Below, piece after piece: positions 2,412 through 30,630 of a stretch of DNA of 64,000 bases. The notes under the pieces are model-generated. The model ran no database searches, was not told the origin of the DNA, and was given only the letters and a program-made list of their open reading frames with translations. The position numbers and the translations under genes are program-made. Location: the IMG/VR virus record IMGVR_UViG_3300042398_000969, positions 32,001-96,000 of that record. One strand, given 5' to 3'. Each line of letters opens with the position of its first letter. The stretch's first letter is position 1. Source of the DNA: a virus.

Positions 2412-3071
2412 TTAAATCATTTTTCTGTGGGTCACATCTATTCTAACCCTTATATTTGGGGATAATATATATTTTTCATAATGGGCTTGGATTAATTTTA
2501 ACCCCAAATATTCCAATAAGTCGTTTATTGTACCCTCATCGTGCTTTTCATATATATCTTCGTAATAAAATAATGGGTATTTTTTATTTTGTGATAGGTT
2601 ATGTAAAATATCACTAGATTCGTTATATCTTTTAATCATAGTTTCAATATATGAAGGTTTAATTTTTGTCATGTCATATATTTTTGGGACATGCCATCCA
2701 ACCCCTCTTTCCCTACTCCATGTTTCATTGATAGTAAAACTTTCCGCCTGATGAGTTTTATTTTTTCTATCTAATATCACAATTTTATCAAAGAATGTGT
2801 CACACCATTCAAAATATTCATGTACATTATTGAAGTTTTTTCTTGGGAATTCGTCATAACCAACGATTAATAAGTTTTTTACTAAAATATTATCATAACT
2901 TAATAACGGTTCTATTGTGTCACAATCAAATTTATCAAAATAATCTTTATAATTAGAATCGTTATATGGTTCCATAAACATTTTGTAATTCGGTAATTCT
3001 ATATGCGAATCAATAAACTTAGTCAAGGACGTTGACCCACTTCTTGGGGTTGCCAATATTAAAATTTTCAT
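2412..3071 (-). CDS. Sulfotransferase-like protein (PAPS-binding P-loop fold)
   Basis: N-terminal ATPRSGSTSL 5'-PSB-like loop, EP motif, DR...QAES 3'-PB-like segment, FYYED; paralog of 7487..8104. Confidence 0.65.
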   Translation of the reverse strand: MKILILATPRSGSTSLTKFIDSHIELPNYKMFMEPYNDSNYKDYFDKFDCDTIEPLLSYDNILVKNLLIVGYDEFPRKNFNNVHEYFEWCDTFFDKIVILDRKNKTHQAESFTINETWSRERGVGWHVPKIYDMTKIKPSYIETMIKRYNESSDILHNLSQNKKYPLFYYEDIYEKHDEGTINDLLEYLGLKLIQAHYEKYILSPNIRVRIDVTHRKMI

Positions 3072-3586
3072 AAAAGATTTCTAGATTTCATTCTAAACTT
3101 ATGTATAAACATAGCAATTGCCCATCGTTCTCCGTTTATGATTGGGGTAACTTGGTGTGGTGTTTGGGATTGGTATATGCACACGTTACCTATCTTTTTG
3201 TCGATAAATATAGGTTTATCATTTTCATCGAATACTAAATAATCTCCTCCTTCAAAATCTTCGTTTAATATAATACCAACATTCCATTCCTTTATAGGGG
3301 TTCCTGTATCAATGTGTTTACTGAACTCATCTCCTGATGTATAGTGATGTAAGTTTAACTTTGTCGGTCTTAAAAAAATGTGTAGATTCGTTTCTTTTTC
3401 GAAATAATTACACATTCTATCAATAACCCAATCGATATCGGGTAGGTAATCCAATGCATAAAATTTGTATCTAAAATTGTTAAATTCATCCCATCTACCA
3501 TTGTCACCTAATAATGGGTATTTATCTTTTAAATTTATAATAGATTCACATTCGTCTTTTGTAAATAGGATAGATTGTATTAACAT
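3068..3586 (-). CDS. 2OG-Fe(II) oxygenase (prolyl-hydroxylase-like)
   Basis: HID, LNEDFEGG, HQVTP, GERW facial-triad/2OG-binding pattern. Confidence 0.85.
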   Translation of the reverse strand: MLIQSILFTKDECESIINLKDKYPLLGDNGRWDEFNNFRYKFYALDYLPDIDWVIDRMCNYFEKETNLHIFLRPTKLNLHHYTSGDEFSKHIDTGTPIKEWNVGIILNEDFEGGDYLVFDENDKPIFIDKKIGNVCIYQSQTPHQVTPIINGERWAIAMFIHKFRMKSRNLL

Positions 3587-3614
3587 TTTCTTTATTTATA
3601 TGTTGTTGAATTAC

Positions 3615-4292
3615 TTATATTAGTGAAGTATAATTTTCTTTTCTAATATTTCTAATTTCTTTTATTAGTTGATTATTTGTACCATATTCGGAATGTGGTT
3701 TCCAATTAGTGCCCATCTGAATATATTGAAGTTCTGCATTCCATCTATTTTTATCAACACCGATAATATCTATGGTTTTAGCATATTCACCAGTCAACCA
3801 CCAAAAGTTACCTGAATAAATTATATTTTTAGAGTTATTTACGGTTTCCAATAAAACACCGTATGTGTTAAAATCGGTTCTATCAAATATTTTAAGTACA
3901 TTTTTAACTCTTTCAATGTTAAAATATTGCATTAAATTTCTCCAATTTGACTCCCTATTGTATTTATTTTTGTTTTTTAATTTGGATGCCCCTTTAGTAT
4001 GAAAATAAAAAATATAATCCGAATTTTCAAATATCTCTTTATCTTTTTCTATTAAATTTAAAGTAACAAATTCGTTTCCTCTTGGGTAAATGTCTCTTAT
4101 TATATAATTTGATTTATTGTAATCATGAAATTTTCTTATAATTGAGTCGGTTGGCGGATTATCGTCTGATATTGAGATACCTACATTTAAAATATATGGG
4201 AAATTAAAGTGTTTTTCTATTAAAGAGATTTGTTCATCAATTATTGACTCCACTCCTTCTATTGAATATATGTGATAATAAATTCTTACCAT
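3615..4292 (-). CDS. Putative glycan-modifying/glycosyltransferase-like protein
   Basis: YFHTKG and YSGNFWW motifs, RgpF-like in character; cluster context. Confidence 0.45.
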   Translation of the reverse strand: MVRIYYHIYSIEGVESIIDEQISLIEKHFNFPYILNVGISISDDNPPTDSIIRKFHDYNKSNYIIRDIYPRGNEFVTLNLIEKDKEIFENSDYIFYFHTKGASKLKNKNKYNRESNWRNLMQYFNIERVKNVLKIFDRTDFNTYGVLLETVNNSKNIIYSGNFWWLTGEYAKTIDIIGVDKNRWNAELQYIQMGTNWKPHSEYGTNNQLIKEIRNIRKENYTSLI

Positions 4293-4329: not shown

Positions 4330-4989
4330 TCATAAAAATTTCACTTTTTTATTGTTATTATAATTTTTAATTAAATCATAAAGATAATTAGACATTTGTT
4401 CGTGACCATGTTCGCTAAAGTGTTTGTCAGATATTTCACCATTTGTTTCATCAAATATTGTTTCTATTTTTTGTGTGATTGGTGTAACAAGCATACCATC
4501 GGTTTCTTGTTTATATGGTGACCAATTAATAATAACGTTATTTGGGTACATTTGATCAATCAATCTAATATATCTGTTTATCTCATCAATATAAATTTGG
4601 TTATTTCTATTAACAACGATTTCATTTAAACAATCAACACAAATATCTGTCATATAAATGATATCGTTTAATTCATCGTTGCTTAAACTATTTGGTCTAA
4701 TTGTTAAGAAATTACCTTTTTTGGATACAATTCTAAATCTTATTGTTGATGACCACCCAATAATAATAATATCATTCGAATTAATTCTACTTAAACTATC
4801 AATTACGGTATCGATAATTGTATAATTATCTGCACCACTAATCCCCATGTTTCTATAGGTAATATTTAATTTATTGGATAAAAAATCTGAAAATACTTTT
4901 GGTACATACCCCTTCCTTTCAACATAACTAGGAACTAGTCGATTATTTTTGGCCGAGAATGAGTCGCCAAAAACCCACAGCTTTGACAT
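4330..4989 (-). CDS. SGNH/GDSL-fold acyl esterase/transferase-like protein
   Basis: FGDSFS block I, G-x-x-G-A-D-N block II, DKHFS block V. Confidence 0.7.
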   Translation of the reverse strand: MSKLWVFGDSFSAKNNRLVPSYVERKGYVPKVFSDFLSNKLNITYRNMGISGADNYTIIDTVIDSLSRINSNDIIIIGWSSTIRFRIVSKKGNFLTIRPNSLSNDELNDIIYMTDICVDCLNEIVVNRNNQIYIDEINRYIRLIDQMYPNNVIINWSPYKQETDGMLVTPITQKIETIFDETNGEISDKHFSEHGHEQMSNYLYDLIKNYNNNKKVKFL

Positions 4990-5000: not shown

Positions 5001-5114
5001 TTAAGAATGTTTATTTCTTATTGCTGTGAATATTGTATGTAATATGTTTAAACAATTAATTTTATCTGTTGTTTGAACCTGTAAAATTGTTGGTCTTTCT
5101 AATAATTTTGCCAT
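5001..5114 (-). CDS. 37-aa small ORF directly downstream of the ATP-grasp-Hint gene
   Basis: Manual translation MAKLLERPTILQVQTTDKINCLNILHTIFTAIRNKHS*. Fills the gap between two genes with ~10-nt spacers and has an A-rich initiation context. Confidence 0.6.
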   Translation of the reverse strand: MAKLLERPTILQVQTTDKINCLNILHTIFTAIRNKHS

Positions 5115-5123: not shown

Positions 5124-6527
5124 TTAAATTTTTTCGAATCGGTTATGCGCAATTACATTAGCCAATAAATTAGCTCCAGTTATACTATTTGAATCGGTAC
5201 CTGCAATGAATACGTCATCCGGTTCTATGTTAATTGTTGTAATATTACCACTATACCATTCTAAATTTATTGATGTAATTTCTGCGGTTACCTGATTTGA
5301 AATAACCAATGAATCAGTGTCTTCAATATCAGTAACTATTTTAAATTTAACTAATCCAGTATTATTTTCTTTAATTAGTAGTTTCTCATTTGTAGTTACC
5401 AATGTACTACCAGTTGATGATTGGAAAGAATATTCAATTTTAGGAAGCCACCCTTGAAATGTGGTGGTTAATTTGTTAACAACTGACGCAGTTGAATATG
5501 TAATTAATTCAGAAATTTCTAATGTAGAAGACCAATTTAAACTTTCATTAGATTTCTCATTTTTATCTAATCCAACTAAAGAAACAGATTTAACGATATC
5601 ACCAATTTCAAGTGAATTTAAATCAACAGAAATTTCTTGATCATCAACAATTTTAATAACATCATATTCACTAGGTATACCAATAGAATTTACTGGATTA
5701 GAGAAATACATAGATCTCCATTTGTTGTCTAATTTAGTGTTAGTGTATGTAGCATTATTTTCATCTAGAGACACCGGATTGGTGTAAACACATCCGCCTA
5801 AATAAATCATAGTTTCGACATCTTCTAACAGTAATGTCCAAGTTCTTATGACATTCGAAATTTTACCGTTTACTAAGGTATTCTCATTAAATTCATATTC
5901 TTGTAACATATTTGTACCGTTAACCGTTGATTTTAAATCATTTAAATCGGTTTCTGTATCAATTTTATAAAATGCCGGATATTCGGTTTTTTCAAAATCA
6001 GGTAATGTCTTTTTAAAAATTATATTTGGGTTTTGATTATTATCAACTAAGTCGTTCAAATTATCGAACATTTTACTATCGTCACTTAAATCTCTAACGC
6101 ACGTTTTTGGTAAAAGGTCTTCGTGATTAGACTCAAATAACAATTTTACCATTTCTGCTTTATCTCGGCAATATATATCATCGATAATTGCGGTAGAATC
6201 ATATGCACATCTCAAATAAAAAGTAGTACTTTCGACATTTACCGATGGGGTTGTTATATCATTATTATTAATAACAATTAGTTCAAGTTCTATGTTATTA
6301 CTATCACAAGCGGATTGAAACTGGTTTATTACAGATTGTCCAATATGTCTCTTTTTATAAACAATAACCAACTTGGTGTACGTATTTGTGGTCAAATATG
6401 TCATTAAATTATCCAATTCCAACAAATGGGACGCCGATTCGTGTAAATCAACGTCTGTGTTTGTTTCCAAAAACTTTATATTGTCCCCCAACTTCAAAAA
6501 ATCGGAGCCTATTAAAACTGCTTTCAT
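5124..6527 (-). CDS. Circularly permuted ATP-grasp-like ligase fused to a C-terminal Hint-like domain
   Basis: N-terminal GSDF...KFLETNT (metal-binding D...ExN at the N-terminus, as in CP-ATP-grasp enzymes), CRDK, LLPKT, NIIFKK, MLQEY. C-terminal LEIGDIVKS...TINIEPDDVFIA...VIAHN followed by RFEKI. Confidence 0.6.
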   Translation of the reverse strand: MKAVLIGSDFLKLGDNIKFLETNTDVDLHESASHLLELDNLMTYLTTNTYTKLVIVYKKRHIGQSVINQFQSACDSNNIELELIVINNNDITTPSVNVESTTFYLRCAYDSTAIIDDIYCRDKAEMVKLLFESNHEDLLPKTCVRDLSDDSKMFDNLNDLVDNNQNPNIIFKKTLPDFEKTEYPAFYKIDTETDLNDLKSTVNGTNMLQEYEFNENTLVNGKISNVIRTWTLLLEDVETMIYLGGCVYTNPVSLDENNATYTNTKLDNKWRSMYFSNPVNSIGIPSEYDVIKIVDDQEISVDLNSLEIGDIVKSVSLVGLDKNEKSNESLNWSSTLEISELITYSTASVVNKLTTTFQGWLPKIEYSFQSSTGSTLVTTNEKLLIKENNTGLVKFKIVTDIEDTDSLVISNQVTAEITSINLEWYSGNITTINIEPDDVFIAGTDSNSITGANLLANVIAHNRFEKI

Positions 6528-6646: not shown

Positions 6647-6859
6647 TTACTTATCGTTTAACCCATATTTTATCCATTTATACCAAATTCTTTCGTGTAA
6701 ATAATATTGGATAGGTTTATATACCAATTCAGCAATCCCAAAAGCGGTACCTATTTTATAATCACCACTTACCCACCAAACTATAGCAAAACCAACTAGA
6801 GTTGATATAATTCGGTATGAGATTGTTTTAGCTATGTGTCTTTTCCTTTGTACTATCAT
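6647..6859 (-). CDS. DUF2061-like small membrane protein
   Basis: KTISYRI...YYLHERIW pattern with hydrophobic segments; this family is often found next to cysC. Confidence 0.7.
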   Translation of the reverse strand: MIVQRKRHIAKTISYRIISTLVGFAIVWWVSGDYKIGTAFGIAELVYKPIQYYLHERIWYKWIKYGLNDK

Positions 6860-7503
6860 ATCAATTTTTTTATATCTGAACGTTTAACAAACGATTTACC
6901 ATCAAATGTGGTATATTTCAATTCATATCCATGTCTAAATGCCCTGTTATTACTATATGGTAGCGATTCCACCTCATCTGACGTTAGTTTATGTCTAACC
7001 GCGTTAAAAATTTGATTTTCAACAGGAGTTTGAAAAAAACCGACAATGGTTCCATCTTTACAATTTGGTTTTACATAATCTAAAAATTTAGAAATATTTG
7101 GGTCCAAATGTGTATCATGTAAAATACCATCAAACTTTGATTGTAGTGTTGGTAGGACATCGACCCAATCACCTAAAATTATTTTCACATTTGGTTTGTC
7201 TTCAGCCCATTGTAAAGCATTTTTAAACATCTCAGGATGGATTTCAATTATTATGTGTGACGTCACATTTGGGTTAGATTGAACAGCGTCAGCTGACAAA
7301 TGCATGCCGAATCCAATTTCAAGTATGTCTCCACCATTTTTTGTAACTATATCGGCTAACTTATACATCAAAGATTCTTCACCATTGTGCATCACATAGT
7401 CATTTTTTAATCCATCTATTCTAATATCATTAGTGGATATTGATATTTTTTCGTCTCCTTTCATAATTAATTTTGAATACAAATTTTCATAAAAATTTAT
7501 CAT
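6856..7503 (-). CDS. Class I SAM methyltransferase, GAMT/Rmt2-like
   Basis: VM...EE..M, ILEIGFGM, HIIIEIHP, GDW, FDGILHDT. Confidence 0.75.
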   Translation of the reverse strand: MINFYENLYSKLIMKGDEKISISTNDIRIDGLKNDYVMHNGEESLMYKLADIVTKNGGDILEIGFGMHLSADAVQSNPNVTSHIIIEIHPEMFKNALQWAEDKPNVKIILGDWVDVLPTLQSKFDGILHDTHLDPNISKFLDYVKPNCKDGTIVGFFQTPVENQIFNAVRHKLTSDEVESLPYSNNRAFRHGYELKYTTFDGKSFVKRSDIKKLI

Positions 7504-8104
7504 ATTTTTCTGAAATTCTTACCTTTTTATCATCTGATATTAACCAATTATTAATCGATTCTTCAATGGGTTTTAATTCCAAATAATCAAAAATTTCATT
7601 TATTACTGAGGTGTTTTTATTAACAAAAATATCCTCATAATAATATATTTTTTTATTATAATTTTCTGAAAATGATTCTAACGCATCTGAAACAACTATC
7701 AAATTTAGTTCCCATTCATTAAATGTATCTTTAGGGATTGAATTTAAATAATAAACTCGTTTTCTTTTGTGTCTATCTTTAATTTTATTTACGGTGTGAT
7801 ATATAAAACTTTCACTTTGTTCTATTTTGTTTATTCTATCAAGAATAATAACTTTATCAAATGTTTCGAAAATAGATTCATAAAATAATTTCGAATTTTC
7901 TTTGACATTTGATGGTGTTTGACCCAATAACATTTTAAGTAGAACATTTTTATCGTCATCACAAAATGATAGATTTTCTTCAATTTTATAATGTCGGTCT
8001 AGGGGTTCCTCCAAGAAAGTATAATCATCAGTTAAGTGTTCTTTAATACAATTAAATAATGATGATGATCCACATCTACCTGATGCCATTATACATATTC
8101 TCAT
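7487..8104 (-). CDS. Sulfotransferase-like protein
   Basis: SGRCGSSSL loop, EEP, LDR...EQSES, YYED; paralog of 2412..3071. Confidence 0.65.
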   Translation of the reverse strand: MRICIMASGRCGSSSLFNCIKEHLTDDYTFLEEPLDRHYKIEENLSFCDDDKNVLLKMLLGQTPSNVKENSKLFYESIFETFDKVIILDRINKIEQSESFIYHTVNKIKDRHKRKRVYYLNSIPKDTFNEWELNLIVVSDALESFSENYNKKIYYYEDIFVNKNTSVINEIFDYLELKPIEESINNWLISDDKKVRISEKYDKFL

Positions 8105-8484
8105 TACCCTTTAGTTTTATCATATGTTATTTTCCCATCTGAAGTCATATGTCCCGTTCTAATTGCGGTACCACTAATTTGTCCAATATCGGTTGGTGGT
8201 TCGTGGTAAATTACATCATACCCAACTCCTCTACCATAATTTACGGATTCAATATCGGGAATAATTGATAATAGAATTTTATTAAAGTTTTCATTGAAAA
8301 ATGGTTCCTGTATTAACATCTGAAACACCTCTTGAGCGGTCTTTGGGTTGTTTTCATCCACCTCAACATCTCTAATTGCCACCCACACATTCTTACCTTT
8401 TTGTAATTGTTGGTTAATAAGCCATTCGTGACCTTTGTGCCAATTTTGCCATCTTCCGATGTACATTGCGTACTTTTTACTCAT
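8104..8484 (-). CDS. HIGH-class nucleotidyltransferase (cytidylyltransferase-like; candidate minimal ATP sulfurylase)
   Basis: GRWQNWHKGH (HxGH) and ISGTAIR motifs; translationally coupled to cysC. Confidence 0.7.
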   Translation of the reverse strand: MSKKYAMYIGRWQNWHKGHEWLINQQLQKGKNVWVAIRDVEVDENNPKTAQEVFQMLIQEPFFNENFNKILLSIIPDIESVNYGRGVGYDVIYHEPPTDIGQISGTAIRTGHMTSDGKITYDKTKG

Positions 8485-8915
8485 AGTGATAATTTTTTTA
8501 ACAGTTCATAATATGAATCTGTTTCGTTTTTTATTGTTGTGTCTATATCTATAAAATTCTCTAAAGGTGGTTCGTACTCCCCAACATGGAATTCATTCCT
8601 ACCTCTATCCTCTGTGGTGTGCACATAAATCTCAACAACCGATGTGCTGAACTTAAAAGACTCTCTTTGGTCTCTATACGGTGAAACTAAGGACACAATT
8701 ACATTATGTCCTTTACTGTGCATGAATTGTGCAATGTATTGTGCTCTTTGGATGTTTAATCTTCTTCCTGTGATGGAATAGTCTTTATTCTTAAAGATGT
8801 CTCTTAGGTCGTCTCCATCGATGTGAATAACCTTGTCTTTAGGGAAATATTCTACTAAGTATTTTGCTAGGGTTGTTTTACCTGCTCCGGGTTGCCCTGT
8901 TAACCAATATATCAT
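8481..8915 (-). CDS. cysC: Adenylyl-sulfate (APS) kinase
   Basis: WLTGQPGAGKTT P-loop, IDGDDLR, DYSxxGR, SLVSPY, YEPP. Confidence 0.85.
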   Translation of the reverse strand: MIYWLTGQPGAGKTTLAKYLVEYFPKDKVIHIDGDDLRDIFKNKDYSITGRRLNIQRAQYIAQFMHSKGHNVIVSLVSPYRDQRESFKFSTSVVEIYVHTTEDRGRNEFHVGEYEPPLENFIDIDTTIKNETDSYYELLKKLSL

Positions 8916-8952: not shown

Positions 8953-9072
8953 CTAATGATTATAAACGAACGGATCTCTTTTTTTAAGTTCCTCCATACG
9001 TTTTTTAATCATTTTTTTACGTTTATAGTTCCTGATTTTGTCCTTAATATATTTGATGAGTTTTCCTATCAT
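8953..9072 (-). CDS. 39-aa basic peptide ending KRDPFVYNH
   Basis: Manual translation MIGKLIKYIKDKIRNYKRKKMIKKRMEELKKRDPFVYNH*; ATGA overlap with the stop of the upstream gene. Confidence 0.7.
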   Translation of the reverse strand: MIGKLIKYIKDKIRNYKRKKMIKKRMEELKKRDPFVYNH

Positions 9073-9776
9073 ATCAATTTAATTATTCTTGTTTCATTAT
9101 AAATATCCTTTATATATGCAACTCTGGTCTCATTTAAAAATGTGTAAAATAATTCGGCTAATAAAAGATTTCCCTTTTCACCAAAATGACCGTCATTAAC
9201 CAACCCTTCCGTTTCTTGTTTAATAGATGTAATATTTCCTCTTTTATATAGGTAACCTAATTTCATTATGTTTATGATACCTTTAGATTCTCTTAATGGA
9301 TCAAAAAGTGTCCAAAAATATACTTTATATCCATCTAACACCATTTTAAATAAATTAACATAGTTTTCAAATTCTTTCGCAAAAAGAGGATGCATCCTAT
9401 TCGTCAATATTTCAGATATAGTGTCACTCGATACTGATAAGTTGTCATTACGCCCACCAACCGCTATTGACCTAAAATTAATTTTATCAACAATCCTAAA
9501 ACGAGACGTATCAGTTAGACCAACAAAAATGACATCATTTTCTTTGTCAAATTTTTTAATTTGGTAAAAAAGTGTTTCAAAAATACTATAGTTATCCGAA
9601 CCACCCATTCCATGGTTTTCTAGTTCTAAGTTTAATTTTTCTGCCAATATTTGACTAAAGTTCTTTGGTTCATAACCTAAATAATCAATGTATGGTTTTA
9701 TCCAATCTTGTAATTTCATTGTTCTATCTGTATATAAAGCAGAATTAGAATCTCCAAATACCCATAATTTACCCAT
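9069..9776 (-). CDS. SGNH-fold protein
   Basis: FGDSNS, GMGGSDN, DGHFG. Confidence 0.7.
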   Translation of the reverse strand: MGKLWVFGDSNSALYTDRTMKLQDWIKPYIDYLGYEPKNFSQILAEKLNLELENHGMGGSDNYSIFETLFYQIKKFDKENDVIFVGLTDTSRFRIVDKINFRSIAVGGRNDNLSVSSDTISEILTNRMHPLFAKEFENYVNLFKMVLDGYKVYFWTLFDPLRESKGIINIMKLGYLYKRGNITSIKQETEGLVNDGHFGEKGNLLLAELFYTFLNETRVAYIKDIYNETRIIKLI

Positions 9777-16152: not shown

Positions 16153-16914
16153 TTATATAAATTTAGGGGTTGCTTTATAATTTCTAGTAACCATCTCTGC
16201 CCATTTTTTACCAGCTGGTTCATGGTATTGTGCGTTTCTCCAGTGAACAATTAAGTGTATTCTATCTTCTTTAGAATCATTCCAAACGGCATGTCTATTG
16301 GATAAATCCAATAAGAAACCTTTACCTTCTTTGAATGGTACAATACCTTGATTCTCCATTATGAAATTACAACCCTCTGGATTATTCAATGCAATGTTTA
16401 TCGGGAATAATAATTTATGATCCCTATCTCTGTGTGGTAAAACATACCCTCCAGCTTTTAATAACATGAATCTAACTCTGGTATATGAATCATGTGGGAA
16501 AACGTCTTTAAAATATTCAACCGTTTTAGGTATTCTATCTGATATCTCTGTCCAATCATATGGAACCAGTTTCTCATCACCTAATGCTTTATATTCTTCA
16601 TAACTATTCCAATTCATTGTGTGTTGAGATGATATACCATGTATTGTTAAACTAGCCCACCCGCTATGTGATGCTCCCATTTGACCTGGGTCGTTTGCTC
16701 TATGATCAACAAACAATGACTTTAGTTCTAGTGCTTCATTAAGCATTTCTTTATATGGTAAACCATCTAGTGGTATCTCCCAGTATGGTACACCACTTTC
16801 ATTTTGTAACCATTGGTACTTATTGAACTCCGTTTGAAAATTTGGGAAGTCGATACGTTTTGGTTTTAACATACTATTTGCTTCGTAAAACTCAGTCAGC
16901 TTACTATCTACCAT
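16153..16914 (-). CDS. Aspartyl/asparaginyl beta-hydroxylase-like 2OG-Fe(II) oxygenase
   Basis: RVRFMLL, PHRD, HAVWN, RIHLIVH. Confidence 0.8.
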   Translation of the reverse strand: MVDSKLTEFYEANSMLKPKRIDFPNFQTEFNKYQWLQNESGVPYWEIPLDGLPYKEMLNEALELKSLFVDHRANDPGQMGASHSGWASLTIHGISSQHTMNWNSYEEYKALGDEKLVPYDWTEISDRIPKTVEYFKDVFPHDSYTRVRFMLLKAGGYVLPHRDRDHKLLFPINIALNNPEGCNFIMENQGIVPFKEGKGFLLDLSNRHAVWNDSKEDRIHLIVHWRNAQYHEPAGKKWAEMVTRNYKATPKFI

Positions 16915-20247: not shown

Positions 20248-21481
20248 AATATTTCGATATTTCTGGTATCATCACAGAAATGTTTTGGTTTCTTTTTATA
20301 TCCAAAGCGTTAGTGAATTTTTTAAATAAAACTATTTGATATTCATTTCTCTCTAACGACAGTTGGTTCTTTATTGCTATTAATCTTTCTATCACCCAAT
20401 CAACTTGGAACACATCCGGATACTCTCTACTTTCGATATCACCCAGCGTCTCATCGATCTTAACTATAAGATCATTCTTCAAATTGTCTGGCATGTTCCT
20501 AATATTAAGATAAGAGGGATTTTGCAATATGTGTAGTATAGGTAAAACTGATTTCGATAAGAAGAAGTCAATTAGATCAAACATACAAAACACATTATAT
20601 ATTTGAACGGTGAAATTGGCATTCATCTTTATGTTATCATGATCGACCATGAACTTATATGTCATATCAATCTTATTTTTGGTTATATCCCATACCATCG
20701 GGTATCTAATGTACTCATAAACAGGGCCTAACCCATCAATTGAGAAATCTATGGTTACACGTTTAAACTTACTTAGTTTTTCTAAGGTTTCTTCTTTCAT
20801 CTTTGTTAGATTCGTATTCAATCTAAACTCAATGTTTTTAGCATAATCACCTTCAATCAAGTAATCTAATAATTCATAGAAAGATTTGTTAATCAAAGGC
20901 TCTCCACCAGAAAATCTAATGATTTTAATTGTACTAGCATTATCTCTGATCCCTTGTATGTAACTTGTTAAATCATCGGTGATTTCAAAGTCAACAATTG
21001 GTAAAATTTCACCTAGAGTACTGTCCAATGATATCAACTCCTTATACTCTTTATTAATAAGGTCAGAATCCTGTGGTTGACACATTCTACATTTTAAATT
21101 ACAAAGATTACCAACACGTAGCTCAATTGCTGTTGGGAATTTATCTAGTTGGCCACCATTTTCTTCCGCTACTTTAACACTATCCAAATAGTCTTCATTT
21201 TCCTCGTATATTTCAACCAGATCTTTTCTTAATGATGTACCACCATTTCTTTCAGATCGATAGCATTCTTCACAACCTTTAATTTCCTCACCATTGATGG
21301 CTTTAATCCTAGATTGTTTCATGTAATCGCTATTCCAGAATGTGTCTAGGCTTTCATTAACACCGATACCAACAACCTTATTATCTTTGATTGGTACATG
21401 TAAACAACAAGTTTTATAAACCCCAAAAGAGTCATTCATGACATTGTTAAAAAAGTTAGGACAAATCGTTTTGTTATCCAT
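20240..21481 (-). CDS. Radical SAM enzyme with N-terminal twitch/SPASM-like domain
   Basis: C...TCC...CEEC; CNLKCRMC; FSGGEP; SIDG...YIRYP. Confidence 0.9.
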   Translation of the reverse strand: MDNKTICPNFFNNVMNDSFGVYKTCCLHVPIKDNKVVGIGVNESLDTFWNSDYMKQSRIKAINGEEIKGCEECYRSERNGGTSLRKDLVEIYEENEDYLDSVKVAEENGGQLDKFPTAIELRVGNLCNLKCRMCQPQDSDLINKEYKELISLDSTLGEILPIVDFEITDDLTSYIQGIRDNASTIKIIRFSGGEPLINKSFYELLDYLIEGDYAKNIEFRLNTNLTKMKEETLEKLSKFKRVTIDFSIDGLGPVYEYIRYPMVWDITKNKIDMTYKFMVDHDNIKMNANFTVQIYNVFCMFDLIDFFLSKSVLPILHILQNPSYLNIRNMPDNLKNDLIVKIDETLGDIESREYPDVFQVDWVIERLIAIKNQLSLERNEYQIVLFKKFTNALDIKRNQNISVMIPEISKYYE

Positions 21482-22644
21482 TACAATAATTTTTTAATAA
21501 AATTGTTACCGTCTTCCCATCTTTCTTTTTCTGGGAATATTTCACAAAGTTTTTCATAATAATAATTTCCTAAACCATTGAGATACAGTTTCTTTTGTGA
21601 TTCTAAAATCTCCGTTTCAGTATTACCATATTTTATCTTTTCAACCAACACGTTTAAATGGTCATAACCATTATGTTGTATTGTATGTATATCTTTCATT
21701 CTATCTAGCATGATATTGTTGATATAATCATCAATTTTATGTTCCGCTAAGTGTAAATACCCACACAGATTATGGTACCTTAAGTATTTAAGATCAGTAC
21801 CAATACTTATAACATCTTTTGGTGTGTCTATAAACCTACCTATCTCCATTATCTTCTTCACATTCGAATTTACTGTGAACTTATTGTCATCACCCGGTTT
21901 TGGTATAATAGATAATGATGGATAATCACTAAATAAAAATGTATGTGCTTCAAACATTGTCCAGTTCTTCAAATACCCCTCGGTTATTTTATTATAGATT
22001 GGGAAAAATAATAATTGTTCCACAATCTGAGGTGACCTGAATGTATCAGTGTCTAATAACTCACGATTTGTAAAATAAAAATCAACCAAATAGTCATAAG
22101 TCTTTTTGATGTTCTCCAAATCATAACCACCAAAAATTGACATGTTTGGTATGAAGTCCATTGGCATTGTTTTAAAGAAATCCAATTCAAAACAATCTTT
22201 TAACTTTATGAACAACTCGTAGTAGTACTCGTAAAATGAAATAAACCTAGAATTCTCAATTCTATGTTCAAATCGTGGGTACAACATCACATCAGGGAAA
22301 GCAAAGATTAACTTTTTATTCTCTGGGATCTGAACCCTTTCGAAAAGGAAAGTATCAGTATCGATGTGTAGGAATGGTGTGTTTTGGTGTCTGTATACCT
22401 CCATTTTGGGTATAGCAAAGTTTGGACCATCATAGTTTAGTTTATCCAACAAGTCTGTGTTAATTCTATTGTATGGAAGATCTAATGGTTTTATGATCTC
22501 ATAAATGTCACTTGTGGTATATAAATGAACATTGTCATATAATCTTTTTGCACATAGCAGTGACATGATCATATGGAAGATCGTTCTTTTGTTAGTATAG
22601 TCTGGTTTTGAACTAACGTTAGCCCATGTGTGGATTATGTTCAT
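21481..22644 (-). CDS. DxD nucleotide-sugar transferase-like protein (DUF6734-like)
   Basis: AIPK...PFLHIDTD, PNMSIFGG, VEQ, YLHL. Confidence 0.55.
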   Translation of the reverse strand: MNIIHTWANVSSKPDYTNKRTIFHMIMSLLCAKRLYDNVHLYTTSDIYEIIKPLDLPYNRINTDLLDKLNYDGPNFAIPKMEVYRHQNTPFLHIDTDTFLFERVQIPENKKLIFAFPDVMLYPRFEHRIENSRFISFYEYYYELFIKLKDCFELDFFKTMPMDFIPNMSIFGGYDLENIKKTYDYLVDFYFTNRELLDTDTFRSPQIVEQLLFFPIYNKITEGYLKNWTMFEAHTFLFSDYPSLSIIPKPGDDNKFTVNSNVKKIMEIGRFIDTPKDVISIGTDLKYLRYHNLCGYLHLAEHKIDDYINNIMLDRMKDIHTIQHNGYDHLNVLVEKIKYGNTETEILESQKKLYLNGLGNYYYEKLCEIFPEKERWEDGNNFIKKLL

Positions 22645-23261
22645 AAATAAAATCTATTCAGTAGGTTGAAGTGCGGTGACCTATCCCAAACTTTTTGTTC
22701 TGTTTTCCTGTTGAAATCATAACAACCAAGTATATTAATATCTATTTCACTTTCACTTTCCAACGCTCTTATTTCATCAATATAACACATTTTTTTCGCA
22801 ATAACTAATCCGGTTAAATCATACTCAATATTGTCAGCATGACCACCACCAAAATTATATGTGCTGGTTGGTAAAAATATCATATTACCCATAAAACTAT
22901 GTACCAATGAGTCATTTATGTATATGAAATTTTCATTATCTCTTCCACTTAATAAAATCTCAAAAGAGGTTTCACCTTTCATTTCTGCATAAAACTTAAG
23001 AACACCCTTTTCTTTATCTTCTTGATCATCAACGTGTCTAAAGGTGAACTGTAATTGATCATCACATATTTGTATGCCCAGTTCATCATTACCTTTCCAC
23101 ACAATATTAGAAACAGAATCTTGTATACCACCAATTAAATCAAATTTGATATAGAAGGTATATTCGTTAGAATTGTCAAATGCTAATATATTACCGCTAT
23201 TCATACCATATGATATGATATCCGGATTTAAGCACCAGGGTTCCTTATATTTTATTATCAT
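22641..23261 (-). CDS. Concanavalin A/LamG-like lectin domain protein
   Basis: Beta-rich, with YTF, IYIND and YDFN...VWDRS patterns resembling the LamG inserts of the GT7 genes. Confidence 0.45.
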   Translation of the reverse strand: MIIKYKEPWCLNPDIISYGMNSGNILAFDNSNEYTFYIKFDLIGGIQDSVSNIVWKGNDELGIQICDDQLQFTFRHVDDQEDKEKGVLKFYAEMKGETSFEILLSGRDNENFIYINDSLVHSFMGNMIFLPTSTYNFGGGHADNIEYDLTGLVIAKKMCYIDEIRALESESEIDINILGCYDFNRKTEQKVWDRSPHFNLLNRFYL

Positions 23262-24634
23262 ATTAAATGTGTTTTATAAAAATCTTCTAACTCTGGAAAA
23301 GTTTTGACAAAATCAGTTCCTCTTCTTTGATCGATTTGTTTAATGTAATGTGAAAACGTTTTTCTTTGTTTAAATAATTCATTATCATCTATTGGTGATA
23401 TTGCCCAATCATACGTTCGTTTAAGTTTCTGTATTTCCATATCAGAACATCCCATATGTGTGTGATCATACATAAGAGTAGCGTTGAATAGTGCCAATTT
23501 AGATTGCTCTAAAATGTTATGTTTCATTTGATGTGGTAATATTTGAATACTCATGAAATTAGGGTAACGCAAATATGATGTATCAAATATCGCTGGTTGT
23601 ATCCAACATCTTTGTTCATTCTGATGTACTCTTTTCAACTCCAGAACATCTAAAATAAATTTATCAAATGAGAAGACGCTTAAAGCGTTATATGTAACCA
23701 TGAAATCAATAGTCACTTGTGGTAACTCTGTCAATATTTTATTAACGTTATTCATGAATCTATTATAATCCATACCATTTCTAAGATATTCCGCTTGTTT
23801 ACCGTGGGCATCACATGATGTGAATATTACTAGTTCTCTAATTCTACCTTCACCCAATATGCGTTTACATTTCTCAATTAAATTATCAATTAGTTTGTCA
23901 GGTACACCTAGATTGGTATTGATGGCTAGATTTAAATTTCTATTAGGTTCTTTTTGTTCTAATATGTAATCTAAAACACCCCAAGTATCTTTTGATAATA
24001 AGGGTTCTCCACCAGTAATTCTAAATGTGTGTAGATCTCTATATAGTTCCGGCCACCACTCCCAAAATGCATCAACATATGGATTATGTTCTGAATTTAA
24101 ATAAGGTGTGGTTTCTTCATTAAAATGATTAAAACCATTTTCATATGGTCCGTATTTTTTAAGTTCTTCAACCCATGAACTTGAGAATTGTGGGCCACAG
24201 TACATACATTTGAAGTTACAAGTATTGCTAAATGCTACCTCAACATATTTTGGATTAAAATCCGCTCTCCAATTCAAATCTTTAATTTCATTATAATATT
24301 CCCAAGACCATGGTTCAGATGATTTAAAAACCCTATCAGAATATCTATCCGAATTGTCTTCTATTTTCCAACAATATTCACATTCCGATGGTCTACCGCC
24401 ATTTAACATTTCACGTCTTTTCTCTTTTTTAAATCTCGTGTTATGTAATGCGGATGGATTGTTTTTAATTTCAATCTCAGGTATCTTATGAAGACTTGGG
24501 TGGTGACATGAGTGGTTGTGCCCAGTATGTAATTGTAACGTTACTTGTGTCCATTTAGCTAGACACATACCATTACCAATCCCATTGAGTGATTCACTTA
24601 CTTTTTCATAATGTTTATTAATGTCTATACTCAT
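23258..24634 (-). CDS. Radical SAM enzyme with N-terminal twitch/SPASM-like domain
   Basis: CLAKW...SCHHP...CEYCWKIED; CNFKCMYC; ITGGEP; paralog of 16916..18235. Confidence 0.9.
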   Translation of the reverse strand: MSIDINKHYEKVSESLNGIGNGMCLAKWTQVTLQLHTGHNHSCHHPSLHKIPEIEIKNNPSALHNTRFKKEKRREMLNGGRPSECEYCWKIEDNSDRYSDRVFKSSEPWSWEYYNEIKDLNWRADFNPKYVEVAFSNTCNFKCMYCGPQFSSSWVEELKKYGPYENGFNHFNEETTPYLNSEHNPYVDAFWEWWPELYRDLHTFRITGGEPLLSKDTWGVLDYILEQKEPNRNLNLAINTNLGVPDKLIDNLIEKCKRILGEGRIRELVIFTSCDAHGKQAEYLRNGMDYNRFMNNVNKILTELPQVTIDFMVTYNALSVFSFDKFILDVLELKRVHQNEQRCWIQPAIFDTSYLRYPNFMSIQILPHQMKHNILEQSKLALFNATLMYDHTHMGCSDMEIQKLKRTYDWAISPIDDNELFKQRKTFSHYIKQIDQRRGTDFVKTFPELEDFYKTHLI

Positions 24635-25851: not shown

Positions 25852-27017
25852 ATATTTTTGTAACTTGTGTTTCTCATTAGATCTAATTTTTGAAAATAAA
25901 CTTTTAAATCATTTCTATGAAAATCTCCTTTAATTATTTTTGAATCAATTCTAACATAATCTTTAAACGTTTGCATGATATCATATATGTTAGAAGCATA
26001 TTGTTTTTTCGCTAAGTTCTCGTCAATATAATTGATTACCTTTTCTTTAAATTCATCTGGTGCAGCACCAACCGCAAAATAGTATGGTGTTGTCGCCCAA
26101 TGAAAATGCATCTTCTCCTGTGGTAAATAACCATTACCGGAAACATAATCAATAAAGTCAAAGATATGAAATATATTCATCAATGTTATTGTATATTCAA
26201 TTTCAGCATAAACATTTTTATGTGTCTTATTGAACTCAACAATTTTACTTAAATTATTGAAGAACTTTTCTGAAACAAACCCAGTTCTCTGAAATTCTCC
26301 AACCTCACCATAACCATCACAAGAACAACCAATGATAACATTGTTGAATTTCTTAAGTTCCTCTAATACATCTCTGTCTTTGTACTTTAGTGTGGATAGA
26401 TTGGTGTTGATATACATGTTAATACCTTTAGCTTGCTCTTCACCAAAACGATCAAGTAATTTAAAGATATTATCATTGATAAATGGTTCACCACCAGCTA
26501 AGTATAAGTGGTGTATGTGTTTTAAATCTTCATCTGTGAACTTATCAACCGGGTCTTTACCAATATCAATAAATTTGGTATGTGAATCAGAGAATCCTTT
26601 CCCATATATCTCAGTTAGGTCATCATGCCATGATGATGATAAGCTTGGGCCACACATTCTACACTTAAAGTTACATAAATTAGAAAATCTAACATCTAGA
26701 TATTCCAATCTGTTAACGCTATAATCAGGATTTATCAATGTTGGGTCATCCATTTTGTGTGACCACATTTTATTCCAATTATCCTTTAACGTGTTACCTT
26801 GTTTAAAGCACACATCACATGATCTAGGTGCCGTACCTTCGTCCATTTCTTTTCTTAGTTGTTTAAACTGTTCGCTATTAAACAACTCCATGATTGTTGG
26901 ATAATCATTAAAATTCAAATCCTTATCGAATTTGCTTGATATACAACAAGGTCTAACTGACCCATCTGGATCAACATAGATTGATGTATAACCTAATACG
27001 CATTGTGTACTTTTCAT
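25824..27017 (-). CDS. Radical SAM enzyme with N-terminal twitch/SPASM-like domain
   Basis: C...PCC...CDVC; CNFKCRMC; LAGGEP; tandem paralog of 24631..25851. Confidence 0.9.
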   Translation of the reverse strand: MKSTQCVLGYTSIYVDPDGSVRPCCISSKFDKDLNFNDYPTIMELFNSEQFKQLRKEMDEGTAPRSCDVCFKQGNTLKDNWNKMWSHKMDDPTLINPDYSVNRLEYLDVRFSNLCNFKCRMCGPSLSSSWHDDLTEIYGKGFSDSHTKFIDIGKDPVDKFTDEDLKHIHHLYLAGGEPFINDNIFKLLDRFGEEQAKGINMYINTNLSTLKYKDRDVLEELKKFNNVIIGCSCDGYGEVGEFQRTGFVSEKFFNNLSKIVEFNKTHKNVYAEIEYTITLMNIFHIFDFIDYVSGNGYLPQEKMHFHWATTPYYFAVGAAPDEFKEKVINYIDENLAKKQYASNIYDIMQTFKDYVRIDSKIIKGDFHRNDLKVYFQKLDLMRNTSYKNICPWIEMMF

Positions 27018-28423
27018 TTCATTTTTACATTTATAAATTTAGTGTTTGGGTATAAGCTATCGTCGACATTTACTATCTCCATAGTATCCAAAACATTTTT
27101 TAAACCATCTTCTTTATAGTTTATCTTTCCTTGTTGCATTTCTGTAACAAATCTTTTTTCATTTCTTGCAGTTGTTTCACCTTTAGCCCATCTACCATGT
27201 ATAAACCCCTCGTCAACATGTGGCAAACAATAAAATTTACCTTCTCTTCTATATGGAATAATATTTTCAATTATTTCAATATCTTCAGTAGTTAGATTAA
27301 CGTTTTGTCTAATTACGTCTTGGCTATTCATATCCATATTTAAAATAAGATTTTCTGTGTTTGTATAAACATCCTCTACGTTGTTGAAAAACTTATCATA
27401 AATTTTAAAATCAGATATTTTACCTTTAAATCTTGTATTACTATGTGAACAAAATCCTAACAAGAACGGTTTAACCGAATCGTGAGTTTTTAAATGTTCT
27501 TTGATTTGAAATGGAACATTTTCTTTAGTTCCACTTCTTTGTGATATAAGTTCATCATTTACATAAATGTACACACTTTTTTCTTCTGAATTATAACTAA
27601 GTGTTACTTGTGTCCACATTCCTTCAAATCTTTTTGCCCAGTTGTAATGTCTCATGTTTGTTCTATCAAACACAGTAACCGTTACTGCTCTAGAATTGTT
27701 GAAAGATAAACCCCATGTCCAGCTACCATCTTTTCTTAATATTGGATATTCAATAAATTGTTTATTTTGATCCCCTACTAGCCAAATTGGTACCTTATTC
27801 TCTTGTTGTTCAGCATTAAATGTTAAAGTTATTGTGTGATCGTTATGTAAGCATGAACTAATTTCTCTATTTGTTGGTACATATATTGCAGAATCATCCC
27901 CATTAAAAGTTGCTATTAACTTATCTTTTTCTGTTTTTATAATTCTACCGGTAGTCAATCCCTCAAAATAACATCTCCAGAATAAATCATCATCTTCTTG
28001 TCCCCAGTCCCAATATTCATTTGAATATCCATTGGTATTATATGCTTGTTCTTTGTTAAATAAAACAACCCCACCGAAGTACTGATCATAACCCAATCCA
28101 TAGTTGTACTTTGATAGTTTTGTAGCAATGTGTAGTGGGAAGTTTTCTGGGTATGCATAACTAACACCAACCTCTTCTTTGTTATAAACTAACATATCCA
28201 CGTCATGCCAAGCCACATAGTCACATCCATCTTCAAAAGCGTGGTGTGCAGCAATGTTTTTCATTGCACCTCTGTTAAATAATTTATCATCAACTTGATG
28301 ACCAACATAAAATGTGTGATCAATACCCTGATTAGTTAGTTCTTTTGACAGATGTGGTATTAAAGACTCAATATGTTCTTTTCTATTTCTGTATGGTATG
28401 CATATACCTAATTTATGACTCAT
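27014..28423 (-). CDS. GT7 (beta-1,4-galactosyltransferase-like) glycosyltransferase with inserted LamG domain
   Basis: IPYRNR, FNRG, HDVD, YFGGV, NGYSNEYWDWGQEDDD; then LamG-like FNG...IYVND...FKGKISD; then GT7 tail PH...DGL. Confidence 0.85.
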   Translation of the reverse strand: MSHKLGICIPYRNRKEHIESLIPHLSKELTNQGIDHTFYVGHQVDDKLFNRGAMKNIAAHHAFEDGCDYVAWHDVDMLVYNKEEVGVSYAYPENFPLHIATKLSKYNYGLGYDQYFGGVVLFNKEQAYNTNGYSNEYWDWGQEDDDLFWRCYFEGLTTGRIIKTEKDKLIATFNGDDSAIYVPTNREISSCLHNDHTITLTFNAEQQENKVPIWLVGDQNKQFIEYPILRKDGSWTWGLSFNNSRAVTVTVFDRTNMRHYNWAKRFEGMWTQVTLSYNSEEKSVYIYVNDELISQRSGTKENVPFQIKEHLKTHDSVKPFLLGFCSHSNTRFKGKISDFKIYDKFFNNVEDVYTNTENLILNMDMNSQDVIRQNVNLTTEDIEIIENIIPYRREGKFYCLPHVDEGFIHGRWAKGETTARNEKRFVTEMQQGKINYKEDGLKNVLDTMEIVNVDDSLYPNTKFINVKMK

Positions 28424-29847
28424 ATTCCAATTATTGCGTGATATGTTTTATTGTCCCTCATTAAACCATGTTGCACAAAGTCTAAATCAGATAGCCCGTC
28501 GTTATATAACAACTCTTTATTTATTGATACCTCATTTAAAAATCTAAGTTGATTCCATCTAGTCGCCTGATCTTTCCATTTTGTACCAAGAAACCCATTT
28601 TGTTCATGTGGTAAAGATTTAAATAAAGAGGGTCTTCTATATGGTATTTTAACCTCTGTAAATTCATCATAATTACTATCAACAATTTCACATTTTATTA
28701 TGATACCATTATTACCATTGCCAGATAAATCTACCAATTGATAGTTTTCGATGAAATTAACATCATAATATGTTTTTAGGTCTAATGATGATTTATATCT
28801 TTTAAAATTATTTGTTAAATCTTCGTTTTCGTTTGTTGAGATATCAAAAACCTCGTCACTTTCTAACATGTCATCAAAATAAGCAAACCTATCAATCGTT
28901 CCTCTAAAATAATTTTCAGTTTTTTCTCTATTTGGATTACCAACACCTAAATAAAAAAATTCTTCTTTTTTATAAAAATGTAACTTTTTAAAAACTGGTG
29001 TTTCCCCAATAAAAACACCATCTTGATAAACCTTTATAATTTTTTCATCCCTATCTAAAACAACCGTCATGTTTGTTTTGTAATTAGGTTTTATTTTTGA
29101 ATTCACATACAATGCGTTATGTGAAATATCAAATGCACAAAAATTATATCTCGAAAATGAATTATAGCAAATAGCAAAATCCCAACCAGGAATACTAAAA
29201 ACTGTAAACTCATCAGTTTCTCTAGTGTGATCTAAATTTAGTTTATCTGGATAAAATGAAATAAAAAAAGTAGCGTTTGAATTTAAATTAATAATGTTTT
29301 TACATTTAACAAAAGCATTATTACCATTGAATCTTAAAGACTTACCATTTCTACCAAAGTTTTTTATTTTTAATGAATCTAAATTAATGTTGTTCTCCTT
29401 ACATCTTAATAATAAATCATCATCTTCATATCCCCAAGCCCAATACTTATTTGAATACCCATTTATTTTTTTAAAATCCTCAACTGGAAACATTGTAACT
29501 CCACCAAAATATTCTTCAAACATGTCTCTTTCTTTTTCGTCATTTTCATATTCGAAATTTGTAGATAAATGAAGTGGTTTATCACTATAAGAATAATCAA
29601 CCTCTGATGGTATCATATCAATATCATGAAACACAACATAATCACATTTGTGCTCTAGTGCATACTTAAATCCAATATTAAGTAACATACCTCTATTGAA
29701 TTGCTTAGCACCATCTTGTTCAACGATAAAAATATTGTGGTCTATCCCATTTTTACTGAGATAAAACGGCATCAATCTTTTAAACTTAGAAAGTTGTGAT
29801 AATCTATCTCTGTAAGGTACAATAACACCGAGTTTATGTTTATCCAT
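28420..29847 (-). CDS. GT7 glycosyltransferase with inserted LamG domain
   Basis: VPYRDR, FNRG, HDID, YFGGV, NGYSNKYWAWGYEDDD; LamG-like SLRFNG...FRGTID...DLSGNGNNG; then PH...DGL. Confidence 0.85.
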   Translation of the reverse strand: MDKHKLGVIVPYRDRLSQLSKFKRLMPFYLSKNGIDHNIFIVEQDGAKQFNRGMLLNIGFKYALEHKCDYVVFHDIDMIPSEVDYSYSDKPLHLSTNFEYENDEKERDMFEEYFGGVTMFPVEDFKKINGYSNKYWAWGYEDDDLLLRCKENNINLDSLKIKNFGRNGKSLRFNGNNAFVKCKNIINLNSNATFFISFYPDKLNLDHTRETDEFTVFSIPGWDFAICYNSFSRYNFCAFDISHNALYVNSKIKPNYKTNMTVVLDRDEKIIKVYQDGVFIGETPVFKKLHFYKKEEFFYLGVGNPNREKTENYFRGTIDRFAYFDDMLESDEVFDISTNENEDLTNNFKRYKSSLDLKTYYDVNFIENYQLVDLSGNGNNGIIIKCEIVDSNYDEFTEVKIPYRRPSLFKSLPHEQNGFLGTKWKDQATRWNQLRFLNEVSINKELLYNDGLSDLDFVQHGLMRDNKTYHAIIGI

Positions 29848-30031
29848 TTATTGTTGGGTCCTTTGGTTTAGCAATGTTATGCCATTCAGCTAAATAATAT
29901 TGAATTCTATCACTCCACTCTTGTTTGTCGATCTCTTCAAACCAAATGGTCAACGCATCTAATGAATTAGCAATCTTTTCTAGTGCTTTTACTTTCTTTT
30001 GCTCTAACGCAAATTCTTCTTCTTTTGTCAT
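29840..30031 (-). CDS. Small hypothetical protein
   Basis: 63-aa ORF overlapping both neighbours. Confidence 0.65.
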   Translation of the reverse strand: MTKEEEFALEQKKVKALEKIANSLDALTIWFEEIDKQEWSDRIQYYLAEWHNIAKPKDPTING

Positions 30032-30630
30032 AATAGTTTTTTTGTTTTTATGTTATTTTTATTTAACACATATGATAACGCAGCACCTTCTCCACTACCG
30101 ATGATACCTTTATCACCCTCATGTAGTATACTTAACGTTTCAAATATAGGTTTTAATAATTCTAGTTCACAAATTAATTGTGTTGCAGGTAATGATTTAG
30201 GTAAGTAAATAAAATTTTCTTTAATTGTTTCACTATCTAAATGGATATCATCAATCATATCCTTAAACATACCAAATCTAACATCATCAAGATCTTTTAA
30301 TGTTCTTTTTGGCCAGTTTTCTAAGTATACAACAAATTTTTCATTCGGATTAATCTCTTTAATCCAATATAATAAATTATCATTAAATAACTCATCAGCA
30401 TCGATATATAAAACATCCTCTCTATACTCTTCCACTATCCTTAACGCGTGTAATATTTTATCAAAATATGAGAATATTTTATTCTTATATTCTACTGTCA
30501 AAACATCGGTAAACATATCTACATTGTTTGTTAACACAATGGAATCATTTTTAAATGATCCATTTCTACTCAAAAAATCGCTTAAGATTTTTGAATATGA
30601 TAACCCAACTGAAACAAACGCGTACTTCAT
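30028..30630 (-). CDS. DxD glycosyltransferase-like protein
   Basis: VLTN, FSYFDK, YIDAD, GSGEG; paralog of 32196..32921. Confidence 0.55.
   Translation of the reverse strand: MKYAFVSVGLSYSKILSDFLSRNGSFKNDSIVLTNNVDMFTDVLTVEYKNKIFSYFDKILHALRIVEEYREDVLYIDADELFNDNLLYWIKEINPNEKFVVYLENWPKRTLKDLDDVRFGMFKDMIDDIHLDSETIKENFIYLPKSLPATQLICELELLKPIFETLSILHEGDKGIIGSGEGAALSYVLNKNNIKTKKLL

Follow-up and report, generated by a model that had tools for sequence, protein, structure and literature searches.

Do unrelated enzymes encoded in a single phage gene island carry a common C-terminal label? The question is raised by a 64,000-nt stretch of viral DNA (bases 32001-96000 of the 169,422-bp record IMGVR_UViG_3300042398_000969), hereafter called the window, in whose coordinates all positions are given unless stated otherwise. 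An enzyme island at 2412-30630 is flanked by fibre-like structural proteins, and the minus strand holds nearly all of the genes among the open reading frames (ORFs) of the window. The record has a GC content of 32% and is about 50% complete as estimated by CheckV. The island encodes sulfotransferase-like proteins, 2-oxoglutarate-Fe(II) (2OG-Fe(II)) oxygenases, SGNH/GDSL-like proteins, a GAMT-like methyltransferase, an APS-kinase-like protein, a carbamoyltransferase, an Asp/Arg hydroxylase-like oxygenase, a DUF6734 protein, two GT7-LamG glycosyltransferases and eight radical SAM or SPASM paralogues. An earlier note, made from the window sequence, had claimed that island enzymes of different folds end in a shared K-[LFM]-[IL] motif that could act as a docking or sorting tag. 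Re-reading of the minus-strand ORFs confirmed all eight such ends and three near matches, which are listed here together with one half-tagged protein:

2412..3071, minus strand: sulfotransferase-like protein, 219 aa, ending ...VRIDVTHRKMI-COOH, followed by an 82-nt gap
3068..3586, minus strand: 2OG-Fe(II) oxygenase, 172 aa, ending ...RMKSRNLL-COOH (near match)
3615..4292, minus strand: protein of no recognised family, 225 aa, ending ...KENYTSLI-COOH (near match), followed by a 28-nt gap
4330..4989, minus strand: SGNH/GDSL-like protein, 219 aa, ending ...NNKKVKFL-COOH, followed by a 37-nt gap
6856..7464, minus strand: GAMT-like methyltransferase (PF27704), 202 aa from Met14, ending ...SDIKKLI-COOH, in ATGA overlap with the DUF2061 gene
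7487..8104, minus strand: sulfotransferase-like protein, 205 aa, ending ...SEKYDKFL-COOH
8481..8915, minus strand: APS-kinase-like P-loop protein, 144 aa, ending ...LLKKLSL-COOH (half-tag)
9069..9776, minus strand: SGNH-like protein, 235 aa, ending ...ETRIIKLI-COOH, in ATGA overlap with a 39-aa basic ORF
16153..16914, minus strand: Asp/Arg beta-hydroxylase-like oxygenase, 253 aa, ending ...YKATPKFI-COOH
21481..22644, minus strand: DUF6734 protein, 387 aa, ending ...NNFIKKLL-COOH
23258..24634, minus strand: radical SAM enzyme, 458 aa, ending ...FYKTHLI-COOH (near match)
30028..30630, minus strand: protein of no recognised family, 200 aa, ending ...NIKTKKLL-COOH

Because two pairs of these proteins are paralogues (2412/7487 and 4330/9069, at 30-32% identity), the eight strict cases correspond to about six independent families, a number still far above chance.

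Enrichment and definition of the motif

ORFs were called greedily over the whole record and scored for the strict motif, K[LFM][IL] at the C-terminus. The motif was found in 8/32 island ORFs versus 1/132 elsewhere (Fisher P = 7.5e-6), confirming genome-wide the enrichment that had been suspected. K[LFM][IL] occupies 0.29% of internal positions in the island proteins, which gives a binomial P of 5.5e-14 for the C-terminal count. As had also been claimed, none of the structural proteins encoded at 33-60 kb carries the strict motif, and two hydrophobic terminal residues occur among them only at 35035 (TEII). The motif was defined post hoc from these same data, and replication was therefore sought in relatives.

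With the last, second-last and third-last residues designated P0, P-1 and P-2, relatives were found to vary at P-2, and K-[LFM]-[IL] proved too narrow as a description of what is conserved. The two terminal residues are invariant in being hydrophobic, and Lys is enriched anywhere from P-2 to P-6. The conserved unit is best described as a Lys/Asn-rich linker followed by a terminal [L/I/F]-[I/L]-COOH.

A tail scored more broadly, as [LIFMV][ILV] at the C-terminus, was counted in a pooled set consisting of the window and four related islands (L005, L007, L009 and L010). It was present in 45/96 island proteins versus 8/150 proteins outside the islands (P = 1e-14), and the latter rate equals the internal dipeptide frequency of 5-6%. 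Among island proteins of 100-260 aa, 36/52 were tailed; counted by family, 12/36 island families were tagged as opposed to 6/133 outside (P = 1.2e-5). Lys makes up 24-47% of residues at P-3 to P-6 of these tails, against a background of 8.5%. In tagged island proteins weighted by family, P0 is Ile (73%), Leu (25%) or Val (2%), and P-1, which is hydrophobic in every tagged protein, is mostly Leu (60%), Ile (19%) or Phe (18%). P-2 is most often Lys (41%), Ser (27%) or Thr (10%). In the window P-2 is Lys in 8/11 tagged proteins and Ser or Thr in 1/11; in the four related islands it is Ser or Thr in 20/36. The tail is missing from the carbamoyltransferase, DUF2061 and a 126-aa protein of no family, all of them island families, and likewise from the structural proteins.

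Conservation in related phages

Relatives were metagenomic contigs fetched after homologue searches, which identified hundreds of them. Comparison of island and structural-gene DNA with 50,697 phage records gave no matches, and DUF6734 queries returned nothing by tblastn or in a scan of viral contigs.

In L001, a close and syntenic relative, every tail of the window is kept with one change, from KKLI to KTLI. Tails are even more pronounced in the four more distant islands of the pooled set, where they are found on 2OG oxygenases, a methyltransferase, a Trp-halogenase, sulfotransferases, three families of unknown function and a 95-aa protein (for example KKNKTLI, KKNKSII, KKTKSIL, KKEKSLL, KSNKSLI and KNKQNLI). 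Two further loci reached through distant DUF6734 homologues, L011 and L012, encode proteins ending in KPLI, KRLI, KDLI, NKLI, RKMI, IKLI, PKLI and DKLI.

The same pattern was seen family by family. Two hydrophobic terminal residues are present in 119 of 120 sulfotransferase homologues (51-96% identity), 30 of which have the strict motif; the ends are mostly QNLI, KKLL, KKII or QSLI, with Asn or Lys at P-2. P-1 and P0 are hydrophobic in 100% of 120 methyltransferase homologues, with Lys at P-3 in 89 and Ser, Lys, Thr, Asn, Gly or Gln at P-2. All 11 of the 2OG oxygenases from the window and the four related loci end in two hydrophobic residues, and in this family the K/N-rich linker varies in length and sequence as the last two residues stay fixed. 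Within families generally, sequence variation falls in the linker that joins the last conserved element of the fold to the terminus. Three families of unknown function are tailed in 5/5, 4/4 and 4/4 members, and both halogenases (2/2) are tailed. For DUF6734, P-1 and P0 are hydrophobic in 83-86% of the 35 best representatives of 50%-identity clusters (30-37% identical to the query); overall, two terminal hydrophobic residues were found in 46/150 cluster representatives versus 6.8% expected. The radical SAM enzyme at 23258 has a related enzyme in L011 that ends ...EKRLI. Homologues of the 30028 protein end NPKLI in L012 and, untagged, DLYG in L007, and orthologues of the APS-kinase-like protein end in KLSL, KLDL, KLKI or NHL, with DKLI in L012.

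The hydroxylase at 16153 is tailed in 7/15 close orthologues versus 3/105 more distant homologues (below ~50% identity). The rarity of the tail in distant homologues argues that it is a setting-specific addition and not part of the fold.

The earlier note had named loss of the motif among orthologues as grounds for abandoning the tag; it is kept by orthologues in seven or more unrelated families. Its claim of a shared tag thus stands in its substance, as a protein-level feature of unrelated folds that is conserved in orthologues and absent from structural proteins, and gives way in its K-[LFM]-[IL] wording.

Gene overlap, start regions and codon usage

Genes in the island are closely packed, and ATGA overlaps or A-rich initiation regions could bias the last codons of a gene, a caveat raised together with the motif. 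Gaps, orthologues, codons and start-region bases all indicate that such bias does not explain the tail. As noted at the outset, the genes at 2412, 3615 and 4330 precede gaps of 82, 28 and 37 nt and keep the motif or a near match. In the pooled set, the tail was found in 19/31 island genes with a 4-nt overlap versus 0/9 outside, in 9/23 versus 6/34 at spacings of -1 to +3, and in 16/31 versus 2/86 at gaps of at least 5 nt, the gaps in the window reaching 82 nt. Since the tail is equally frequent with overlaps and with gaps, gene overlap is not its cause. NNA-TGA is present at 13/31 island stops, ten of which are true ATGA overlaps. The last codon must end in A in such an overlap, which explains the terminal Ile or Leu there and leaves the rest of the tail unexplained.

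An origin of the tail in the start region of the following gene was considered and rejected. Base frequencies upstream of 67 intergenic starts showed that positions -5 and -4 are A-rich, which would give Lys or Asn, and not T-rich, as Leu or Phe would demand; by arithmetic from these frequencies the strict motif is expected in ~0.5% of ATGA overlaps. Start regions are rich in A and T, 72-77% of genes have an A at -11, and no Shine-Dalgarno sequence was found before any gene class in the whole record. The position of the motif is fixed relative to the stop codon and not to the next ATG: its Lys lies at -8 from that ATG in ATGA overlaps, at -11 at 21481 and at -12 at 16153, and 2412 has no start codon within 82 nt. 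Different codons are used for the same tail residues, with AGT and TCN for Ser at P-2, TTA, TTG, CTT and CTA for Leu, and ATA and ATT for Ile. The bases across the stop are identical over 15 positions in 6856/9069 and over 12 in 4330/7487.

Several gene ends were re-examined individually. The longest ORF of the 6856 methyltransferase opens 13 codons early (7464-7503); 120 homologues, of ~202 aa, begin at the equivalent of Met14, and the start most likely lies at 7464. With this start the apparent 17-nt overlap with 7487 is removed, and 7487 is followed by a 22-nt gap. The genes at 4330 and 7487 terminate in ...TTATGA, and no gene begins at that ATG. The end of the 9069 gene is not an empty gap, as the 39-aa ORF (8953-9072) begins there in an ATGA overlap. 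This minus-strand ORF is unannotated and very basic. The gene calls for L001 include it, and a 38-aa ORF after the upstream gene of L012 matches it at 50% identity; all three products end ...DPF[V/I]YNH.

Predicted structure of the tails

AlphaFold2 models were made for two of the enzymes, the 2412 sulfotransferase and the 6856 methyltransferase, from alignments of 41-42 sequences (mean predicted local distance difference test scores, pLDDT, of 86 and 89). In the sulfotransferase model, residues 211-215 have a pLDDT below 50, the final block averages 50, and a two-residue bridge is predicted at 217-218. In the methyltransferase model coil extends over the last nine residues, with a pLDDT below 50 in the final three. 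Given this low-confidence coil, the tails look exposed and flexible. An alternative in which IKKLI forms the final beta-strand of the methyltransferase fold was rejected, as the model gives coil with falling confidence.

Proposed role and alternative explanations

Taken together, these comparisons indicate that the tail is a short linear motif under selection at the protein level. Docking to a common partner is its most likely role, to which we give about an even chance. A flexible Lys/Asn-rich linker of ~4-10 residues, followed by [L/I/F]-[I/L] with a free carboxylate, has been appended to many unrelated small tailoring enzymes (oxygenases, a methyltransferase, sulfotransferases, SGNH enzymes, DUF6734 and some radical SAM enzymes) that one group of uncultured aquatic phages encodes in its tailoring islands. 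One common partner would read the free C-terminus and gather these enzymes at the same place or scaffold. Unrelated enzymes of one genome tend to have the same kind of residue at P-2, which is K/R for the window, L011 and L012 but S/T for the four related islands of the pooled set (P = 1.4e-5), and this is suggestive of a reader that co-evolves with the tails, although the contrast between genomes is confounded by their differing family content.

Other observations also weigh against docking. The carbamoyltransferase, most radical SAM enzymes and the GT7 glycosyltransferases are untagged though expected in the same pathway. No reader protein was found, and the PDZ profiles PF13180 and PF00595 were unmatched in this record, which is about half complete. 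The exposure of the tails is drawn from two modelled ends, and the models give no data on burial. Finally, terminal Ile outside overlaps is encoded by ATA in 19/28 cases versus 40% expected (P = 0.002). This excess points to a weak nucleotide preference beside the stop, and a small nucleotide-level pressure near the stop appears to coexist with amino-acid selection.

The explanation that we rank next, although we consider it unlikely, is a degron: one of the host's AAA+ proteases (ClpXP, FtsH or Lon) would recognise the basic-then-aliphatic C-terminus, for timed clearance of the tailoring enzymes. The tail has a likeness in RRKKAI, MuA's C-terminal signal for ClpX (PMC8138137), the tails are predicted to be exposed and flexible, and a position at the extreme end suits recognition of a free carboxylate; a lytic phage, however, would seem to gain little from clearing a dozen enzymes in a single infection cycle, and the preference for Leu, Ile and Phe at P0 and P-1 is unlike Ala-Ile or Ala-Ala. 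Less probable still is an anchor, in which the polybasic linker and two aliphatic residues would hold the enzymes at the inner membrane face or on an anionic polymer, near a lipid-linked substrate. Such a function would accord with the abundance of Lys from P-2 to P-6 (24-47% versus a background of 8.5%) and with an island that encodes NodH-like sulfotransferases, a carbamoyltransferase, glycosyltransferases and, invariably behind a tagged enzyme, the small DUF2061 membrane protein. Membrane-targeting sequences known from bacteria take the form of amphipathic helices of ~10 or more residues, from which this tail differs; two hydrophobic residues beside a charged carboxylate would give a weak hold on a membrane, and the strict requirement for the very end suits a protein reader better.

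Two explanations would do without a common function. Each family's hydrophobic end might pack on its own fold or oligomer, the likeness arising from AT-rich codons, which favour K, N, I, L and F, and from compact genes. The two-residue bridge at 217-218 of the modelled sulfotransferase is in keeping with this, which we nevertheless judge improbable: non-island proteins of the same genomes show the tail at background level only (8/150), distant hydroxylase homologues lack it, the modelled tails have low pLDDT, linker length varies within a family as the end stays fixed, and convergence within a single genomic context would be required of at least seven unrelated folds. The last and least probable explanation, largely refuted by the results above, is a nucleotide-level by-product, in which gene ends mirror the next start region or reflect termination-reinitiation coupling or a recombination junction of mobile cassettes. 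NNA-TGA at 13/31 island stops, the stretches of 15 and 12 identical bases across stops and the over-use of ATA for the last Ile would fit it. Against these stand the equal frequency of the tail at gaps of at least 5 nt and at overlaps, the lack of a tail on the equally coupled DUF2061, 126-aa protein and carbamoyltransferase genes, the variation of synonymous codons, including AGT versus TCN for Ser, a position fixed to the stop and not to the next ATG, and start regions elsewhere in the genome that are A-rich, not T-rich, at -5 and -4.

Untagged neighbours and candidate partners

If the tails dock to a common partner, that partner might be sought among the recurrent untagged families of the island, which comprise the half-tagged APS-kinase-like protein, the 126-aa protein, DUF2061, the carbamoyltransferase and a 467-aa protein. 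Two of these are described here:

5124..6527, minus strand: strongly acidic 467-aa protein of no recognised family, untagged, conserved in related islands
6647..6859, minus strand: DUF2061 small membrane protein, 70 aa, untagged, in 4-nt overlap after a tagged enzyme wherever it is present

The 467-aa protein has a net charge of -34, its five homologues range from -29 to -40, and they are among the most acidic proteins of these genomes. This protein or a host factor is a candidate for the common partner, and an acidic 467-aa hub for Lys-rich tails is an attractive possibility. In L005, L007, L009 and L010, four of the five homologues fetched, the protein closes with a six-Cys peptide placed right after a conserved His-Asn. 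The copies of the window and of its close relative L001 end in HN-RFEKI, five residues past His-Asn, and have no Cys-rich end. A small ORF of 37-45 aa follows the 467-aa gene in the window (5001-5114, minus strand) and at all five homologue loci. The 467-aa protein gave no significant Pfam match and no profile or sequence match in the PDB, and with these searches empty its reading as an ATP-grasp plus Hint protein was not confirmed. A protein atlas gave a weak, feature-based lead to ATP-grasp/TTL clusters (score 0.90).

Peptides made on ribosomes and modified post-translationally (RiPPs) carry the recognition sequence for their enzymes on the peptide. A more speculative proposal, which we think unlikely to be correct, is that the 467-aa protein serves as a giant 'leader' scaffold with the tails as handles on it: the tagged oxygenases, methyltransferase, sulfotransferases, halogenase and radical SAM enzymes, attached to it through their free C-termini, would tailor the Cys peptide before it is cleaved. 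If true, this arrangement would invert the usual RiPP logic. Should the protein turn out to be an ATP-grasp of the TTL/RimK type, C-terminal ligation might, on this same reading, even use the tails as its substrates.

Six DUF2061 copies are 75-94% identical across phages, whereas the neighbouring enzymes are only 57-69% identical. A DUF2061 gene is found with nodH, nodP and nodQ in rhizobial nod loci (bioRxiv 10.1101/2022.04.26.489235), a placement that fits a possible link to sulfation. A modelled complex of the methyltransferase with DUF2061 gave no answer (score 0.00) and speaks neither for nor against binding.

Other features of the record

The eight radical SAM genes lie at 16916-27017 on the minus strand inside a ten-gene run; seven are paralogous by BLAST, and in three of the eight a SPASM domain scores N-terminal of the radical SAM core. 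An AAA+ ATPase gene at 60571-61638 (minus strand) encodes a protein whose C-terminal two-thirds are 43% identical to BCS1-like ATPases from the PA5oct group of Pseudomonas jumbo phages; no observation connects it with the tag.

Across the whole record, many structural genes begin with ATGGCA or ATGCCA. A AAACTATTTAT-like element lies just upstream of several structural genes, at 2354, 42922, 47813, 54425, 59089 and 59921 on the minus strand, among others. The element, which may act as a late-promoter-like signal, has 17 matches with at most one mismatch, compared with 8.8 +/- 3.1 expected. On the minus strand at 25793-29182 of the genome (window -6207 to -2818) lie the genes of three paralogues in tandem (368-379 aa, 59-67% identical). 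They are just downstream of a 1709-aa fibre gene, on its far side from the island, and all three products end ...GHCGWR(G/A).

Comparison with known systems

Labels at the C-terminus that direct unrelated enzymes to one address are well known from eukaryotes, in the form of the type 1 peroxisomal targeting signal (PTS1) and of PDZ ligands, and from encapsulins. The phage tails share with class I PDZ ligands (X-[S/T]-X-hydrophobic-COOH) a signal in the extreme C-terminal four residues, a hydrophobic, aliphatic last residue and many unrelated carriers, and the Ser or Thr at P-2 of such ligands is common in the related islands (20/36 tagged proteins). They differ in that P-2 in the window is Lys in 8/11 and Ser or Thr in 1/11, and in a strictly hydrophobic P-1, which is not required of PDZ ligands; the two PDZ profiles had no match in this phage record, which is about half complete. 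PTS1, of the Ser-Lys-Leu-COOH type and read by Pex5, is likewise a Lys/Leu C-terminal tripeptide that gives unrelated enzymes a common address. Its consensus, [S/A/C]-[K/R/H]-[L/M]-COOH, is not followed by the phage tail, which is basic at P-2 or further back and hydrophobic at P-1, and a bacterial phage has no peroxisome or Pex5.

Encapsulin cargo-loading peptides and microcompartment encapsulation peptides are also short terminal peptides that, on flexible linkers, bring unrelated enzymes to one assembly. The encapsulin consensus has a conserved Gly-Ser-Leu type core; the phage tail has neither a core of this type nor an amphipathic helix, and no shell-like gene was seen in the islands. The ClpX signal of MuA (PMC8138137) resembles the tail in the general pattern of basic and then aliphatic residues at a free C-terminus, on an end that looks exposed, and differs in ending in Ala-Ile, as opposed to a large Leu/Ile/Phe pair.

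In our literature search, no report of a C-terminal tag of this kind on phage enzymes, metabolic or tailoring, came to light. The tails also illustrate that likeness among gene ends in AT-rich, tightly packed phage operons is not always an overlap artefact. If the tag marks which genes of a large and variable island act together, it would offer a cheap computational handle for recognizing pathway members in thousands of uncultured phage contigs. A tail peptide of 7-10 residues could equally serve as an experimental handle for fishing out the partner, and the tail itself might become a portable tag for enzyme co-localisation.

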